Notes under the pieces: model-generated
What the model was told of the DNA's origin: nothing
What the model saw: the letters and a program-made list of their open reading frames with translations, nothing else
Databases searched by the model: none
In this document: positions 2,922-30,538 of the stretch, one piece after another
Layout: each line of letters starts with the position of its first letter
How positions within the stretch are numbered: the stretch's first letter is position 1
IMG/VR virus record: IMGVR_UViG_3300045988_014907
Origin: a virus
Reading direction: 5' to 3' (one strand)
DNA: 38,917 nucleotides
Made by a program: the position numbers and the translations under genes

Positions 2922-3151
2922 GCGAATTCCCGGAACGGCTTAGAAAGCTGCGGGAGAAAAAGAGACTGAAGCGGTATGTGCTGTCGGAGCGCTGCGGGCT
3001 GAATTCAGATGCTATACGCCGATATGAGCTGGGGACGGCGAAGCCGACGATGGACGCGCTGAAGAGCATAGCGGATGAATTCGGCGTGTCGGTGGACTAT
3101 CTGATGGGAAGGACGGACTATCCCTGCGTGGTAGATATTGCAGAAAAATAA
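2918..3151 (+). CDS. XRE-family helix-turn-helix transcriptional regulator (operon-terminal, Aca-like position)
   Basis: ERLRKLREKKRLKRYVLSERCGLNSDAIRRYELG...VSVDYLMGRTD is a canonical HTH_3 pattern. ATG 2918 lies after GGAGGTG. Confidence 0.8.
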   Translation: MSEFPERLRKLREKKRLKRYVLSERCGLNSDAIRRYELGTAKPTMDALKSIADEFGVSVDYLMGRTDYPCVVDIAEK

Positions 3152-3205
3152 ATTTTGAAAATTCCACTTAAAAGTGGAAAAATTAAAAAAACGCACTTTA
3201 TCATG

Positions 3206-3249
3206 GGAGATGCAGAGGCAAACTCTGCATCTCCATTCTTTTTCTTTTC
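3206..3249 (+). terminator. Rho-independent terminator
   Basis: Perfect 12-bp stem ggagatgcagag / ctctgcatctcc with loop gcaaa, followed by attctttttcttttc. Confidence 0.85.
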
Positions 3250-3404
3250 ACCCTTCTTTCCTGATGGGCGGTGCTTCGGCTCCGCCCGGATGGAGCAATA
3301 TGCAGACGTAGCTCAGATGGTAAGAGCATTTCGCCAATAATGAAGTTGTAGAGGACAACTACGATCCTGTTTTACCGGCAGAGCCGAAGAGCAAACTTGG
3401 CGCT

Positions 3405-24421: not shown

Positions 24422-24465
24422 AGGTATACTTACCCTTTGTGTCCGCCAAGGTAAAATATGCCTAA
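24420..24465. other. Candidate attP core (imperfect dyad) next to the integrase 3' end
   Basis: ttaggtatacttacc / ctttgtgtccgccaa / ggtaaaatatgcctaa. The two arms are imperfect inverted repeats. Confidence 0.3.
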
Positions 24466-25790
24466 CGCGGCGTTACGAAAAACGCGCCATCGTTGTCTGC
24501 ATCAATCCGCTTGATGAAGCGCGTCCAGAATTCCTTTTTTTCTTCCCGAGAGTATGTGCCATATTCGCCCAGCCCGTTTCTCAAGGCGTCGAGGTCTGTC
24601 TTCGGCTTTTCCTCCACGGTTTCGAGGGATCTTTTCAAGATCGAGTATTCCGCTTTATAATCGTCAAGCTCAATCAAATCGTTTAGGTATAGCGTTTTTA
24701 GCTTGCTCATTTTCTTTCGTATCGAGTCCGCGCTTTGCGTGGGCTTTTTTTCGGCCTTTTTGTAGTACCTATTGTTCCGCTCTGCGATTCCAGCAAGCTC
24801 GTGTAGTAGGTAGTCTTCCAACACGTCCTCTCGTATCCTTTTTGTGTGCGGGCAAGAGGTGTTATCAAGCATCCGCGTCCGGCATCGGTAATATGTATAT
24901 GTCTTCTTTACGGTTTCCGATTGCATCGTTTTCCCGCATTCTTTACAATGCAGTATCCCGGAAAACAGATACACGCGGTCTGTGTCAACTCCCGCACAGC
25001 GTTGTGACCGCTGGCGAATAATATCATTTACAATGTCAAAGTCTTGCTTGCTCACCAACGCGGGGCAAGCATTTTCGATGCCGTAAACCTCGCCGATGTA
25101 AAGACGGTTACGGAAATAGTTTACATACTTGCTGTAAGTACGGTCAATGCCCCATGTGTCAAGCATATATCGCTTTACGGCAAGGACGCTTTTTAGCCGG
25201 ATAAACGCCGCGAACATATCTCGCGCCGCATCTGCCGTGCCGTTATCAATCTGGTATTGCCTGTCCTTGATGGCATACCCTAAAGGCGCTTTTGAGCCTG
25301 CCGGTTGTCCTTTTGCCCGTTTCCCATCGTTGATAAATTTGATTCGTTCACTCGTGCGGTCGGCCTCATCCTGCGCGACTGACAACATGATATTGACTTT
25401 CAAACGCCCTGATGCGGTGCGCGTTTCGTAATCTTCTTCCGTCGCTTGCCATGTTACGCCGTACTGGTCGAGCTGTGTTTGTACATCGTAATACCCTGCG
25501 ACATTGCGAAACCAGCGGTCAAGTTTGACAAACAGAATCATGTCTATCTGACCGTCTTTGCAATCGCCCAGCAGTCGCAGGAGCGCAGGGCGCTTTTTAT
25601 ACGGCTTTCGCGCGGATATTCCTGCGTCCTCATATATGCCCACCACGGTCATCTTGTGTTCTTTTGCATATCTTATCAGCGCGTCCCGCTGCTCTTGCAG
25701 GGACAGGCCATGCCGCGCCTGTTCTTCGCTTGAGACGCGGATATACAAAGCCACTCTTATCAAAGCCACTCTCATCAATGCCGCTATCAT
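24462..25790 (-). CDS. Large serine recombinase (phage integrase)
   Basis: Resolvase-type N-terminus (YIRVSSEEQ...), recombinase domain, a Zn-ribbon (CKECGKT...YYRCRT...CPH) and a coiled-coil C-terminus. ATG 25790 lies after GGAGGGGG. Confidence 0.9.
   Translation of the reverse strand: MIAALMRVALIRVALYIRVSSEEQARHGLSLQEQRDALIRYAKEHKMTVVGIYEDAGISARKPYKKRPALLRLLGDCKDGQIDMILFVKLDRWFRNVAGYYDVQTQLDQYGVTWQATEEDYETRTASGRLKVNIMLSVAQDEADRTSERIKFINDGKRAKGQPAGSKAPLGYAIKDRQYQIDNGTADAARDMFAAFIRLKSVLAVKRYMLDTWGIDRTYSKYVNYFRNRLYIGEVYGIENACPALVSKQDFDIVNDIIRQRSQRCAGVDTDRVYLFSGILHCKECGKTMQSETVKKTYTYYRCRTRMLDNTSCPHTKRIREDVLEDYLLHELAGIAERNNRYYKKAEKKPTQSADSIRKKMSKLKTLYLNDLIELDDYKAEYSILKRSLETVEEKPKTDLDALRNGLGEYGTYSREEKKEFWTRFIKRIDADNDGAFFVTPR
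25746..25790 (-). repeat. Three tandem 15-nt copies of the integrase start region (encoding MIAAL / MRVAL / IRVAL)
   Basis: Minus strand reads atgatagcggcattg | atgagagtggctttg | ataagagtggctttg. Confidence 0.85.
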
Positions 25791-26206
25791 CAAATCCCCC
25801 TCCAAAATCCGTAATCTATACAATGAAAATCAATGTACACGCACCACGCAGCGAGAAGAACAATTATAAAAAACATTATAGCAATCACGCCGTTGCGGAT
25901 ACGCACTCCACGCCGCATGATCTCGATCATGTCTGCTTTTGCGTCAACATGGCGTTCCAGCTCATCATTCCGCGCCTGCAAAGTTTCCTCGGTCGGCGTC
26001 AGGTGTTCGGAAATTCCGAACGTCTCGTCAAGGGATATGCCCATTGCCTTGCAGATCGGCGCAACAGTGTAAATGGACGGCGACTTTGAAAACTTGGAAA
26101 AGAAATTCTGCACGGTGGACAACGGTACGCCGGAAGTGTCGGAAATGTCCTGATAGGTCAGTTTCAATTCTTCTTTGCGGATTCTACACACCTCTTGAAT
26201 GTTCAT
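25790..26206 (-). CDS. Membrane-anchored XRE-family HTH regulator, translationally coupled to the integrase
   Basis: N-terminal HTH (LTYQDISDTSGVPLSTVQNFFS), coiled coil, and a C-terminal TM (VIAIMFFIIVLLAAWCVYI). The stop overlaps the int ATG (TGATG). The start is 26206 or 26212. Confidence 0.75.
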   Translation of the reverse strand: MNIQEVCRIRKEELKLTYQDISDTSGVPLSTVQNFFSKFSKSPSIYTVAPICKAMGISLDETFGISEHLTPTEETLQARNDELERHVDAKADMIEIMRRGVRIRNGVIAIMFFIIVLLAAWCVYIDFHCIDYGFWRGI

Positions 26207-27240: not shown

Positions 27241-27608
27241 CCGTTGGCTTTCCGCTTGCACTCGATCACGGTATTTAGCTGCGTCAAGATCGCGTCGCAA
27301 TTTGGCGTAAACCGCTCTATCAATCCGCTGAGTTTGTCAACCTCGACCGCTATTTCCCCGGTCGCCTTTGCCCGATAAATGGAGACGGCATCGGTCGCGT
27401 CATGGAAGCCATTCGGAGACGGATATTTTGCGTAAAGGGAAACGGTAGATACCATTTTGTCAAAATCGGCATCGCAGGCCGTTTCCTTTTCGTGCGCCCA
27501 TATTGTTTGCAGCTTTTTTATTTCTGCCTTTGCCGCCTGTTTTGCAACGACCCATGCGACAATGCCGGAAATAGCAGCACAGCCGAGTGAAATGATGATT
27601 TCTTTCAT
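27237..27608 (-). CDS. Single-pass membrane protein co-transcribed with the CI-like repressor
   Basis: N-terminal TM segment IIISLGCAAISGIVAWVVA. ATGA overlap with the upstream gene. SD is GAGGAAG. Confidence 0.65.
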   Translation of the reverse strand: MKEIIISLGCAAISGIVAWVVAKQAAKAEIKKLQTIWAHEKETACDADFDKMVSTVSLYAKYPSPNGFHDATDAVSIYRAKATGEIAVEVDKLSGLIERFTPNCDAILTQLNTVIECKRKANG

Positions 27609-27976
27609 TGTTCTTCCTCAAAAGCGGCGCGCCCCATTTTTATAAAACGCTCCAGTTTTTCCGGCGGTAATGACAACACAAACTGAATAGCGGCTTTCTG
27701 CAAATCTGTATAGCCCTCGCCCTCTGTGGCGGGGGCTTCTTTTATGCCCGGGTCGTCCGTTTCGCCACGAAGGTATTCGACAGATACTCCGTGCAAAGCT
27801 GAGATTTGGTAAAGATAGTTTTTGTATGATTCCGAATTTCCGGCAATCCAATCAGAAACGATGTGTCCATCTTTAAACCCGAGAGGTCTTGCAAATTGGG
27901 ATAACGCGCCATGCTTAAAAGCGCCATTCTCTTTTTTCGGAATTAAAGCCAGGATTCGTTCCAACGTTGTGTCCAT
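27605..27976 (-). CDS. CI-like XRE-family repressor
   Basis: ATG 27976 lies after AAGGGG. HTH pattern GALSQFARPLGFKDGHIVSDWIAG...LYQISALHGVSVEYLRGETDD. Divergent from the cro-like gene. Confidence 0.7.
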   Translation of the reverse strand: MDTTLERILALIPKKENGAFKHGALSQFARPLGFKDGHIVSDWIAGNSESYKNYLYQISALHGVSVEYLRGETDDPGIKEAPATEGEGYTDLQKAAIQFVLSLPPEKLERFIKMGRAAFEEEQ

Positions 27977-28143
27977 ATTTGCCCCTTGTTTTTTGTGCAA
28001 CCATACAAAACAGTTTATTTGAACCAATTTGGTATTGCAAATGGTTTGAATGTGAGGTATCATATAACCAAGCCCACCGGAAAAGGGCACACAAAAACCA
28101 GCCCCCCATAAAAGCGGCTTTTGCAATGTCTTTTGGCGATTTC

Positions 28144-28172
28144 ATTGTAATACGCTTTCCGGGCAGTGTCAA
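28144..28172 (-). promoter_or_regulatory. Sigma-70-type promoter for the CI-like operon
   Basis: Minus strand reads TTGACA, 17-nt spacer, TACAAT. Confidence 0.6.
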
Positions 28173-28206
28173 GTGTGATTTCTCATGTTTATGAGGTTTC
28201 GGTGGG

Positions 28207-28224
28207 CATTGACTGCGGCGGGGA
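28207..28224. repeat. Left copy of a perfect 18-bp inverted repeat (cattgactgcggcgggga)
   Basis: Exact reverse complement of 28550-28567. Confidence 0.95.
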
Positions 28225-28258
28225 AAAGAAAAAGCACCCGTGGTCTGTTCACGGATGC
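28224..28258 (-). terminator. Rho-independent terminator of the switch-region RNA unit
   Basis: Minus strand reads gcauccgug aacagac cacgggugc followed by uuuuucuuuu. One G-U pair makes it minus-strand specific. Confidence 0.7.
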
Positions 28259-28288
28259 TTTCCCCCCAGATTTGTTTACCAGAACGCA

Positions 28289-28376
28289 TTGCACAGGATG
28301 GTCGGACACGTTGCTTTGTATCCGTCCGAATTGATGGGTTTCTTTCCATCGGCTCGGCAATGCCATCCTGACGCAA
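28289..28376 (-). ncRNA. Candidate structured RNA: three-way junction with twin AAAGNAAC loops
   Basis: P1 is 12 bp (28376-28363 with 28301-28289). P2 is 28357-28326 with loop AAAGAAAC. P3 is 28324-28303 with loop AAAGCAAC. The element lies between a near-consensus promoter and a terminator. Confidence 0.45.
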
Positions 28377-28439
28377 AATCAGACTTGCGCTTCTATGGAC
28401 GCGCCGCTCACTTTGGCAGTTCCGGTTCTGCCCCTTGCC

Positions 28440-28496
28440 CTATCGCATCGCGCCGTTTCTTTGGTCTGGAACGGGCAAAGTCAAAAGGTTGGTCAT
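28440..28496 (-). CDS. 18-codon ORF (MTNLLTLPVPDQRNGAMR) with a near-perfect SD
   Basis: AAGGAGGTGG lies 6 nt upstream of ATG 28496, downstream of the TTGACT-17-TATACT promoter. Confidence 0.4.
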   Translation of the reverse strand: MTNLLTLPVPDQRNGAMR

Positions 28497-28515
28497 GGAA
28501 ACCACCTCCTTGAGA

Positions 28516-28544
28516 TTGCCGCAAAGGGCTAATGGCAGTATAGC
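28516..28544 (+). promoter_or_regulatory. Candidate rightward (cro-side) promoter
   Basis: TTGCCG, 17-nt spacer, TATAGC. Its -10 overlaps the -10 of the opposing promoter. Confidence 0.4.
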
Positions 28545-28565
28545 AAATCTCCCCGCCGCAGTCAA
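28537..28565 (-). promoter_or_regulatory. Near-consensus leftward promoter driving the small ORF/RNA unit
   Basis: Minus strand reads TTGACT (inside the right inverted repeat), 17-nt spacer, TATACT. Confidence 0.6.
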
Positions 28566-28567
28566 TG
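28550..28567. repeat. Right copy of the perfect 18-bp inverted repeat (tccccgccgcagtcaatg)
   Basis: Exact reverse complement of 28207-28224. Confidence 0.95.
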
Positions 28568-28597
28568 ATAACTCACAATGAAGGGAGGACACAAAAA

Positions 28598-28792
28598 TTG
28601 ACATTGAGAGAGCTGCGAGAACGCTCCGGACTGACCCGCGCACAGGTGGCGAAGAAGCTGAATGTTGATCTATCCTGCGTGACGCATTGGGAGCTGGGAG
28701 ACTGGCGACCGGCGCGGAAGTACCACAAGAAACTGGCGAAGATGTACGGCGTGACCGTGGACGAGCTGTTTGAATCCAGCGACGGGCAGTAA
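28598..28792 (+). CDS. Cro-like XRE-family HTH regulator
   Basis: TTG start 9 nt after GAAGGGAGG gives MTLRELRERSGLTRAQVAKKLNVDLSCVTHWELG... The ATG at 28565 has no SD and lies inside the inverted repeat. Confidence 0.75.
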   Translation: MTLRELRERSGLTRAQVAKKLNVDLSCVTHWELGDWRPARKYHKKLAKMYGVTVDELFESSDGQ

Positions 28793-29646: not shown

Positions 29647-29843
29647 CCAACTGCCCCATCGAATGCCCCAATAGGCGGGTAGGATGCCGCACCGGCTGTC
29701 CCGTTTGGGAGCAGCACGAGGCGGAGAAAGCCATCTCTTACGCGGAGCGGGTCAAGAACAACGAGTTCAAGGAGTACAAGGGGCGCGTGATGCGCAAGGC
29801 ATACAAGCGCATTCAACAGGGCGCGAAGGGAGGACGGAAATGA
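29637..29843 (+). CDS. Small Cys-rich hypothetical protein
   Basis: CPIECPNRRVGCRTGCPVW. Overlaps both neighbouring genes. Confidence 0.55.
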   Translation: MGMTNCPIECPNRRVGCRTGCPVWEQHEAEKAISYAERVKNNEFKEYKGRVMRKAYKRIQQGAKGGRK

Positions 29844-30538
29844 AGGTTTACAAGGCAACTAATAAGGATATGAAATGCCGCGGGTTCCAGTATGAGCTTG
29901 GCAAAACGGCAGAAGTGGATGGAGACGCTAAACTCTGTGAAAGAGGTCTCCATGCCTGCGAAATGCCGCTTGATGTTTTGGGTTACTACGCGCCCGGCGA
30001 TGGCTCCCGGTATTTCGAGGCGGAGCTGGAGGATGTCAGCGACGAGATGCAGAGCAACGACACAAAGCGCGTCGGCAAGAAACTGACATTGAGCGCAGAG
30101 ATCGGCATTCCGGGGCTTGTCAAGGCGCAGGTGGAGTACGTTAAAGCACAGTGTGATTTTGACAATGCCATCAAAAAGGCGAACAGCGAAAAGAAAAACC
30201 ACGCCACCGGCTGGAGTGGCGCAGCATCCGCCACCGGCGTGAGTGGCGCAGCATCCGCCACCGGCGAGAGTGGCGCAGCATCCGCCACCGGCGTGAGGGG
30301 CGCAGCATCCGCCACCGGCGTGAGGGGCGCAGCATCCGCCACCGGAAAAGGGTGTGTGGCTATGGCTACTGGTTTTTATGGGCGCGTAATGGGAGAGATT
30401 GGAAACGCCGTTGTCTGCGTAGAGCGAAATATGAATGGAGAGATCGCTGCCATTCTATCCGCTGTTGTGGATGGCGAAACGCTGAAACCCGGCGTGTGGT
30501 ATACCGTTAAGAACGGGGAATGGGTGGAGGTGCAGTAA
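29840..30538 (+). CDS. Repeat-containing phage protein (DUF7666-like N-terminus, GAASATGxx nonapeptide repeats)
   Basis: MKVYKATNKDMKCRGFQYELGK...LHACE N-terminal pattern. Five 27-nt tandem repeats are in frame. Confidence 0.7.
   Translation: MKVYKATNKDMKCRGFQYELGKTAEVDGDAKLCERGLHACEMPLDVLGYYAPGDGSRYFEAELEDVSDEMQSNDTKRVGKKLTLSAEIGIPGLVKAQVEYVKAQCDFDNAIKKANSEKKNHATGWSGAASATGVSGAASATGESGAASATGVRGAASATGVRGAASATGKGCVAMATGFYGRVMGEIGNAVVCVERNMNGEIAAILSAVVDGETLKPGVWYTVKNGEWVEVQ
30203..30346 (+). repeat. 27-nt tandem repeat x5.3 (gccaccggcNNNagKggcgcagcatcc), coding
   Basis: Copies start at 30203, 30230, 30257, 30284 and 30311, with a partial copy at 30338. Variation is limited to 3-4 positions. 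Confidence 0.95.

Follow-up and report, generated by a model that had tools for sequence, protein, structure and literature searches.

FuFi-1 belongs to the handful of bacterial RNAs that their discoverers flagged for likely sophisticated biochemistry, and their report (PMC5737381) describes a terminator-ended motif with features suggesting a sophisticated function, which did not self-cleave, was rarely found in a 5′ untranslated region (UTR) and was judged an improbable riboswitch. The literature that we searched reports no function for it. Here we describe a FuFi-1 RNA and its relatives from the virus record IMGVR_UViG_3300045988_014907 of IMG/VR, the whole stretch of which (38,917 nucleotides) we refer to as the window. 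We conclude with good confidence that positions 28530-28224 of its minus strand are one transcription unit encoding FuFi-1 RNA, and that a three-way junction, which the initial annotation of this stretch had singled out at 28289-28376 as a compact RNA in its own right, is a lineage-specific form of the variable arm of that RNA. The window RNA is a further member of a known orphan family and does not define a new class.

Small RNAs are also found in the immunity regions of temperate phages, where the c4 RNAs of phages P1 and P7 and the CI immunity RNA of P4 act through loops complementary to sites within their own operon, c4 using two loops as its recognition elements. Lambda boxB and HK022 put are antitermination RNAs, the latter consisting of two hairpins one base apart, and the Correia elements of Neisseria are small elements bounded by inverted repeats. 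Like c4 and P4 CI, the window RNA appears to be a small RNA of a temperate-phage switch region.

When the whole window was scanned with Rfam at the gathering threshold a single match was returned, to FuFi-1 RNA (RF02986) at 28453-28228 of the minus strand, with 105.6 bits (gathering score 59.6) and an E-value of 4.2e-22, and this match spans the full model (positions 1-175 of 175). A permissive Rfam scan of 27900-28700 gave no other significant RNA family on either strand, sub-threshold matches to ctRNA_p42d and a CRISPR repeat being at chance level, and ARAGORN found no tRNA or tmRNA gene in the window. The initial annotation could match its fold to no known class and had listed a clear match to a known RNA family among the outcomes that would tell against it; FuFi-1 is such a match. 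The RNA, its family landmarks and the arm are placed as follows.

28228 to 28453, minus strand: FuFi-1 RNA (covariance-model match to RF02986)
28432-28428 / 28419-28415, minus strand: FuFi-1 helix GGCAG/CUGCC with GAACC loop, family landmark
28397-28390, minus strand: conserved block CAUAGAAG (the AUAGAAG block), family landmark
28390-28371, minus strand: hairpin GCGCAAG/UUUGCGU, family landmark
28294 to 28370, minus strand: variable arm, here a three-way junction (Rfam alignment, RNAfold, covariation and clade comparison)
28338 to 28345, minus strand: P2 apical loop AAAGAAAC (sequence and fold; a like motif at the arm tips of loci L143 and L235)
28310 to 28317, minus strand: P3 apical loop AAAGCAAC (sequence and fold; AAAGCAAU in a different stem at L235)
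28293-28290, minus strand: UGCA junction, family landmark
28280-28265, minus strand: conserved block GGUAAACAAAUCUGGG, family landmark

All of the sequence blocks of the family are present, namely the GAACC loop (within a loop region at 28427-28420), AUAGAAG, UGCA and GGUAAACAAAU(U)UGGG, and the conserved core lies outside 28289-28376. In the covariance-model alignment the core of P1 is the family hairpin at model positions ~88-111, which has the consensus tip GAAA, and P2 and P3 together are a 55-nt insertion replacing that tip. The model tolerates insertion at the tip, and the same is seen in all 18 of the 18 representative loci submitted to Rfam, each of which exceeds the FuFi-1 gathering score with a match of 215-270 nt against the 175-nt model. 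The junction does not stand alone and forms a peripheral arm, variable between lineages, of a ~300-nt RNA. The window RNA resembles FuFi-1 as originally described (PMC5737381) in its full model match, its conserved single-stranded blocks and 3′ intrinsic terminator, its Firmicutes relatives and the absence of an obvious 5′ UTR location. It departs from the Rfam model in three respects: a 55-nt two-hairpin insert takes the place of the simple tip, the transcript is ~75 nt longer at its 5′ end, with a conserved structured leader in which a Shine-Dalgarno sequence, a start codon and a short open reading frame (ORF) are hidden, and the unit is bracketed by inverted repeats.

The stems, loops and linkers first drawn for the junction agree with the minus-strand sequence at every coordinate. 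The P1 core CAGGAUGG (28370-28363) pairs with CCAUCCUG (28301-28294) over 8 bp, P2 with its loop occupies 28357-28326 and P3 with its loop 28324-28303, and the linkers measure 5, 1 and 1 nt. RNAfold of 28376-28289 on the minus strand returns the identical structure at a minimum free energy (MFE) of -39.0 kcal/mol (z = -5.20), a stability that was reached by none of 200 dinucleotide shuffles. The outer pairs given to P1, UUGC (28376-28373) with GCAA (28292-28289), are without support, their bases being assigned to other family helices: in the family consensus UUGC supplies the 3′ side of the hairpin before P1, GCGCAAG/UUUGCGU, and GCAA falls partly in the conserved UGCA junction and partly in the helix that encloses it. 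This outer extension would contain 2 mismatches in 4 pairs in the L146 clade, whereas the family hairpin is intact there. The assignment to the minus strand is upheld. The argument from G-U pairs points in the correct direction, although it is energetically weak: the reverse complement of the junction is nearly as stable (z = -4.43), so that thermodynamics alone scarcely discriminates between the strands. We assign the minus strand because the Rfam match is found on that strand only and because a TG-extended TTGACT-17-TATACT promoter and a terminator serve it.

28537 to 28565, minus strand: FuFi-1 promoter (consensus match), with -35 TTGACT at 28565-28560, a 17-nt spacer and TG-extended -10 TATACT at 28542-28537
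28224 to 28262, minus strand: intrinsic terminator (Rfam and fold), with a 13-bp stem 28262-28250/28242-28230, a 7-nt loop and a U-rich tail

The promoter matches the consensus at 10 of 12 positions in addition to the TG, is kept in relatives and would place the start site near 28530. The terminator is that of the FuFi-1 family itself, and all of its stem cells (100%) are paired in 13 relatives. From promoter to terminator the predicted transcript measures ~305 nt, in agreement with the self-contained unit of about 300 nt that had been envisaged.

The family was sampled by scanning viral, metagenome and genome collections for sequence patterns, giving 143 loci, 101 distinct FuFi-1 units and 27 sequence clusters. 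A first scan pattern, GGTAAACAAATNTGGG, gave 119 loci, 25 of them genuine and the rest chance, and more specific gapped patterns were used instead. The genome matches are to metagenome-assembled genomes (MAGs) of Lachnospiraceae, Clostridia, Eubacterium and Eubacteriales, the viral matches mostly to human-gut contigs, and the known range of FuFi-1 is Firmicutes and Fusobacteria. Among GenBank phages BLAST gave two records only, both unannotated.

Across these relatives the region between the preceding hairpin and UGCA is the variable one, a hot spot for branched inserts. The shortest members of the family have GG-UGAAAG-CC at the position of the arm and others carry inserts of 30-155 nt; by MFE folding of the 101 distinct units the arm has two hairpins in 57, three in 24 and one in 16. 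The 77-nt arm of the window type is found in 32 distinct units (45 loci). In 22 distinct 77-nt arms, 94.5% of cells form standard pairs, compared with 25-44% when the partners are slid. Each helix has one doubly changed pair (P1, A-U to G-C; P2, A-U to G-C in 8 sequences), P3 showing the compensatory series A-U, G-U, G-C, and the covariation score of the 22 arms was reached by 0 of 500 shuffles, although the counts represent few independent events, close relatives being 91-96% identical and the shuffles ignoring kinship. Compensatory changes are present in P1, P2 and P3, and the helices are kept in relatives. Furthermore, three-way junctions are built at the same place from unrelated stems at L146 (z = -5.27), L149 (-3.28), L160 (-2.84) and L235 (-4.88). 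Loci L148 and L152 are near-identical in leader and core and have wholly different arms, a 77-nt three-way junction in one and a 107-nt arm in the other, and therefore arms are exchanged as modules. Separately, the classes of L007, L063 and L238 hold an extra 100-130 nt of conserved sequence between the leader and ORF and the core, which is a second site of expansion.

The two apical loops of the window arm do differ by a single base, as had been pointed out, and this near-identity is peculiar to the window sequence, relatives differing at 2-4 positions. What the relatives have in common is a loop consensus, R-A-A-G-N-A-(A/R)-N, and the P2 and P3 loops change independently with no co-variation between them. 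Loops that are A-rich and contain AAG are seen in other units (GAAGUAAU, AAAGAACU, UAAGGAUU and AAAGGACC), as are the further AAG-containing arm loops AAGUAA, AAGAAA, AAGCAA and GAAGA. At L235 the arm loops are AAAGAAUC and AAAGCAAU, and at L143 UAAAGAAACU caps a single long arm hairpin with a stem unrelated to that of the window. In total AAG is found in 59 of 160 arm loops, as against 36 +/- 4.6 after within-loop shuffling, a count that is inflated by relatedness and spread over about eleven clades. Identical pairs of loops within one arm also occur, GCGCAU twice in L160 and AGUGAA twice in L257. Pairing of an AAAGAAA loop with the terminator U tail was considered and dismissed, as no co-variation was seen in relatives. 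The octamer AAAGAAAC occurs twice in the window transcript, in the short ORF (28461-28454) and in the P2 loop (28345-28338); the leader copy stays constant where the loop of relatives has changed, and the repeat is probably a coincidence.

Several observations weigh against this reading of the unit and its arm, in addition to the few independent events behind the covariation. The long arms of L001, L079 and L068 are no more stable than their shuffles, so that the arm is not uniformly a stable junction and the idea that it always is one was dropped. The AAG motif was not found in L160-type arms, being frequent rather than universal. Promoter, start site and terminator are all predicted from consensus, and a role in cis would be compatible with a downstream repressor gene that is consistently in the same orientation.

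We propose a model for the window RNA in which it is transcribed in the direction of lysogeny from a strong promoter of its own, of the sigma-70 type, and released at its own terminator. The RNA would then act as a folded, partner-binding RNA by means of its conserved core, formed by the GAACC loop, AUAGAAG, UGCA and GGUAAACAAAU, and not by simple antisense pairing; we infer that such a mechanism is trans-acting. The arm would be a peripheral scaffold displaying A-rich, AAG or GNRA-like loops for a tertiary dock or a protein contact, and in the clade of the window this display would be doubled, P2 and P3 presenting two R-A-A-G-N-A-A-N loops. That the arm is a display module of this kind is a proposition on which we find the balance even. 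As the promoter abuts the start of a lytic gene, firing of the unit is probably part of the lysis-lysogeny switch itself.

Upstream of the Rfam model the transcript contains a further conserved element.

28454 to 28530, minus strand: structured 5′ leader outside the Rfam model (same architecture in six divergent clusters folded independently)
28440 to 28496, minus strand: short ORF of 18 codons, MTNLLTLPVPDQRNGAMR followed by a stop (leader conservation; translation putative)

The leader is closed by a helix of GCCCU (28529-28525) with AGGGC (28441-28437), inside which a three-tier hairpin, GGCAA/UUGCC, AAGG/CCUU and GGUU/GACC, buries the Shine-Dalgarno sequence AAGGAGG (28511-28505) and the start codon, and the final codons of the short ORF run into the beginning of the Rfam match. 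All clades conserve some 75 nt on the 5′ side of the model, where AAGGAGG-type purines are followed after 8-11 nt by an AUG or UUG that opens a short ORF. Compensatory stem variants exist for GGCAA/UUGCC (GGCGAU/AUCGCC, GGUAG/CUGCC and GGUAA/UUGCC) and for GGUU/GACC (GGUC/GACC and GGUC/GGCC). The cognate versus non-cognate test of the closing helix gave 6.5 versus 6.1 bp, most clades sharing sequence there, and RNAalifold, run on a MAFFT alignment in which the 5′ part of the leader misaligns, gave no more than the inner hairpin and a single core helix.

The transcript may be considered as a small messenger RNA or dual-function RNA, in which the short ORF is translated and the output is a peptide, or translation into the first family helix. 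This possibility, which is compatible with the proposed model, is a serious one that we nevertheless rate below even. Of 51 loci collected without using the leader element, 48 have it ahead of FuFi-1, as does every clade inspected, and a scan of the viral collection with the ORF pattern alone gave at least 120 loci, nearly all with FuFi-1 among the matches listed. The start lies 8-11 nt from the Shine-Dalgarno sequence, at least 11 codons are open in every case, and codon 8 draws on all four proline codons across versions. The ORF of relatives has 11-36 codons and reads M-T-[K/N]-L-L-x-[L/M/S]-P-V-P..., its first ten codons conserved. Nonetheless, the three-tier hairpin is formed by the same bases and, with its compensatory changes, by itself explains most of the leader conservation. 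The differences per site at codon positions 1, 2 and 3 are 0.27, 0.26 and 0.36, a weak periodicity, and ACG stands at the start position in 3 of 48 distinct ORF versions. The tail of the ORF is conserved neither in length nor in sequence, and the FuFi-1 copy at 2444-2619 of L141 is without the leader element.

The genome around the unit bears on a second alternative. The window is a complete genome of a temperate, siphovirus-like phage. Its plus strand holds the genes for terminase, portal, major head protein/capsid, tape measure, tail proteins and endolysin and, as early genes, a Cro-like helix-turn-helix (HTH) gene from 28565 and those for a Sak-like annealing protein and a methyltransferase; its minus strand holds the gene for a large serine integrase (24462-25823) and those for HTH regulators. 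The FuFi-1 gene stands where the lytic and lysogenic modules diverge and reads in the same direction as the lysogeny genes, the CI-like gene and then the integrase, which bears out its placement in the switch region.

28144 to 28172, minus strand: second promoter, TTGACA-17-TACAAT, predicted to serve the downstream CI-like gene (11 of 12 consensus positions; kept in relatives)
27605 to 27976, minus strand: CI-like or repressor-like gene, 123 aa from an internal ATG (weak PHROG match to transcriptional regulators)
28565 to 28792, plus strand: divergent Cro-like HTH gene (HTH_31, 3e-12; HTH_3, 1.7e-9), for which TTG 28598, preceded by GGGAGGA, is a better start candidate

When all ORFs within 4 kb of FuFi-1 units were clustered, Cro/C1-type HTH regulators were the one outstanding recurrent family of neighbours (23 of 27 clusters, 88 loci), and no gene for a specific RNA-binding partner emerged among these ORFs. 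In 17 of the 27 clusters an HTH gene of this type on the same strand starts a median of 222 nt downstream of the unit; at other loci the HTH gene is a short divergent gene directly upstream. Integrases follow 2.2-2.4 kb further downstream, of the tyrosine type in 12 clusters and of the serine type in 6. Since these HTH and integrase neighbours recur across clusters, the arrangement of the window is the rule for phage-borne FuFi-1. Three orphan RNAs taken for comparison are likewise terminator-ended, highly conserved and structured, with folds and models that differ from FuFi-1; they have a specific associated protein domain, whereas for FuFi-1 only generic Cro/C1 HTH regulators and integrases recur. 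On a contig from a Clostridia MAG (L142) a skipping-rope RNA (RF02924, 72.8 bits) lies at 3289-3366 on the minus strand, ~3 kb from FuFi-1, both being orphan terminator-ended motifs of the same 2017 survey. Segment 28172-27977 of the minus strand comprises the second promoter and, between it and the CI-like gene, a leader of ~160 nt, in which a GGGGCUUGGUUUUGUGUU-like motif, seen in several clades and at ~28098-28078 in the window, is possibly a further small RNA or attenuator. In an early-region protein at 29684-30538 on the plus strand a DUF7666 domain precedes GxSGAASAT collagen-like repeats, and DUF7666/collagen-like homologues lie upstream of FuFi-1 units in five clusters.

With such neighbours the RNA could be a cis-acting leader of the repressor operon, a sensor or antiterminator allowing conditional read-through of the FuFi-1 terminator into the CI-like gene, and indeed a same-strand Cro/C1-type HTH gene is found within 700 nt in 17 of 27 clusters. 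The spacing of P2 and P3, one base apart, and loops of the GAAGA type are also reminiscent of phage antitermination RNAs. As in boxB and put, hairpins with GNRA-like, A-rich loops would lie just downstream of a switch-region promoter, and the GAAGA pentaloop of L207 resembles nutL boxB. Unlike in those systems, a boxA-like element and an N-like gene were not identified here, and the FuFi-1 unit has its own terminator and then another promoter, so that the resemblance serves as a lead only. That strong, conserved promoter (11 of 12 consensus positions) stands between the terminator and the repressor gene, which is not the arrangement of a riboswitch or leader. No alternative pairing is visible for the terminator, with its 13-bp stem and U tail, and in 10 of the 27 clusters the downstream HTH gene was not found. 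The discoverers likewise held a riboswitch to be improbable (PMC5737381). We consider a cis-acting leader of this kind unlikely.

A third alternative would take the DNA as the relevant object, a repeat-bounded cassette of 360 bp that is invertible or mobile, or a pair of looping operators, the hairpins being incidental.

28550 to 28567, no strand assigned: left repeat arm, 18-bp perfect, CATTGACTGCGGCGGGGA on the minus strand, covering the -35 box and ATG 28565 of the Cro-like ORF
28207 to 28224, no strand assigned: right repeat arm, directly after the terminator tail

Exact flanking inverted repeats of at least 12 nt are found in 27 of 88 units (the shuffle maximum being 11), in at least four unrelated arm sequences across clades and up to 28 nt at 96% complementarity. 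Perfect or near-perfect repeats of 18-28 bp enclose the whole unit, in the window and elsewhere, from its 5′ boundary or -35 box to just past the terminator; those of relatives include 5972-5999/6388-6415 in L079 and 6273-6300/6627-6654 in L191. On a Lachnospiraceae MAG contig (L141) there are two FuFi-1 copies 500 nt apart on the minus strand, at 3132-3351 and 2444-2619, with inverted repeats at 3101-3128/3404-3431 and 2405-2429/2634-2658; one copy has the leader and short ORF and the other, of consensus length, is without them and still lies within a 25-nt inverted repeat.

At L031 both flanks differ and the cassette is kept together with its repeat arms, which, along with the start of a lytic gene inside the left arm, favours the DNA as the object. 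Such a cassette would recall the Correia elements, being a few hundred bp without a long ORF and having inverted repeats of 18-28 bp that overlap promoter elements; unlike those elements, its repeat arms differ between clades, no target-site duplication was seen and its position in the switch is constant, and mobility is only conjectural. However, the G-U pairs and compensatory changes argue for selection at the level of RNA, it being structure that the covariance model scores, and among assembled viral contigs the inverted-orientation junction was found in 0 against 19 with the normal one, which leaves an invertible cassette without support at the level of assemblies. The repeat arms track the RNA clade and remain constant while the neighbouring CI-like and Cro-like genes change, so that we rejected them as operators of those repressors. 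The DNA-level explanation as a whole is very unlikely.

In the form first proposed, the junction would be a stand-alone, compact three-way-junction RNA whose twin loops either seed kissing or antisense interactions or give a dimeric protein its two half-sites. It is thermodynamically autonomous, both loops fit one motif that is kept across clades, and the recurrence of the AAG motif at the arm tips of clades with unrelated stems favours loops as recognition sites, as do the identical loop pairs of some clades (L160 and L257). Nevertheless, the junction is embedded in a full-length Rfam match, by which the stand-alone class is already refuted, the loops vary independently and close relatives exchange the whole arm. 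Against the antisense version in particular, no complementary target for either loop or for the conserved single strands was found on a plausible transcript within the window; exact loop complements, the kind that was scored, are confined there to the antisense strand of the RNA itself and to minus-strand-sense sites opposite plus-strand genes. The loop-complementary sites that mark a c4-type RNA are therefore not found in the window, and the conserved core of FuFi-1 is far larger than an antisense RNA of the c4 or P4 CI kind would need. As an account of the locus the stand-alone RNA is highly improbable. A remnant of a protein-coding gene, which the initial annotation had also named as an outcome that would tell against it, can be dismissed: the mechanical ORFs that overlap the region (27915-28376 and 28169-28366 on the minus strand, 28166-28513 on the plus strand) have no counterpart in Pfam or PHROG even at E <= 1, and conservation there is helical, not codon-like.

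Returning to the RNA as a folded, partner-binding member of the FuFi-1 family, we further offer a tentative and rather speculative extension, in which FuFi-1 units would be self-contained switch cassettes made of a promoter, a structured 5′ domain that masks a ribosome-binding site, a start codon and a micro-ORF, the core, a swappable arm displaying AAG loops, a terminator and functional, clade-specific inverted repeats, and lying exactly between lytic and lysogenic promoters in many temperate phages of Firmicutes. The RNA would couple ribosome access or translation of the micro-ORF to the lysis-lysogeny decision. If true, this would provide the first biological role for the orphan FuFi-1 class. 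The window offers a clean, complete phage in which to study FuFi-1, with promoter, terminator, flanking genes and natural arm variants all defined. The constant position of the family at the head of the lysogeny module, together with the masked-start leader, the modular arm with its recurrent loop motif and the flanking inverted repeats, makes the function of FuFi-1 experimentally approachable.

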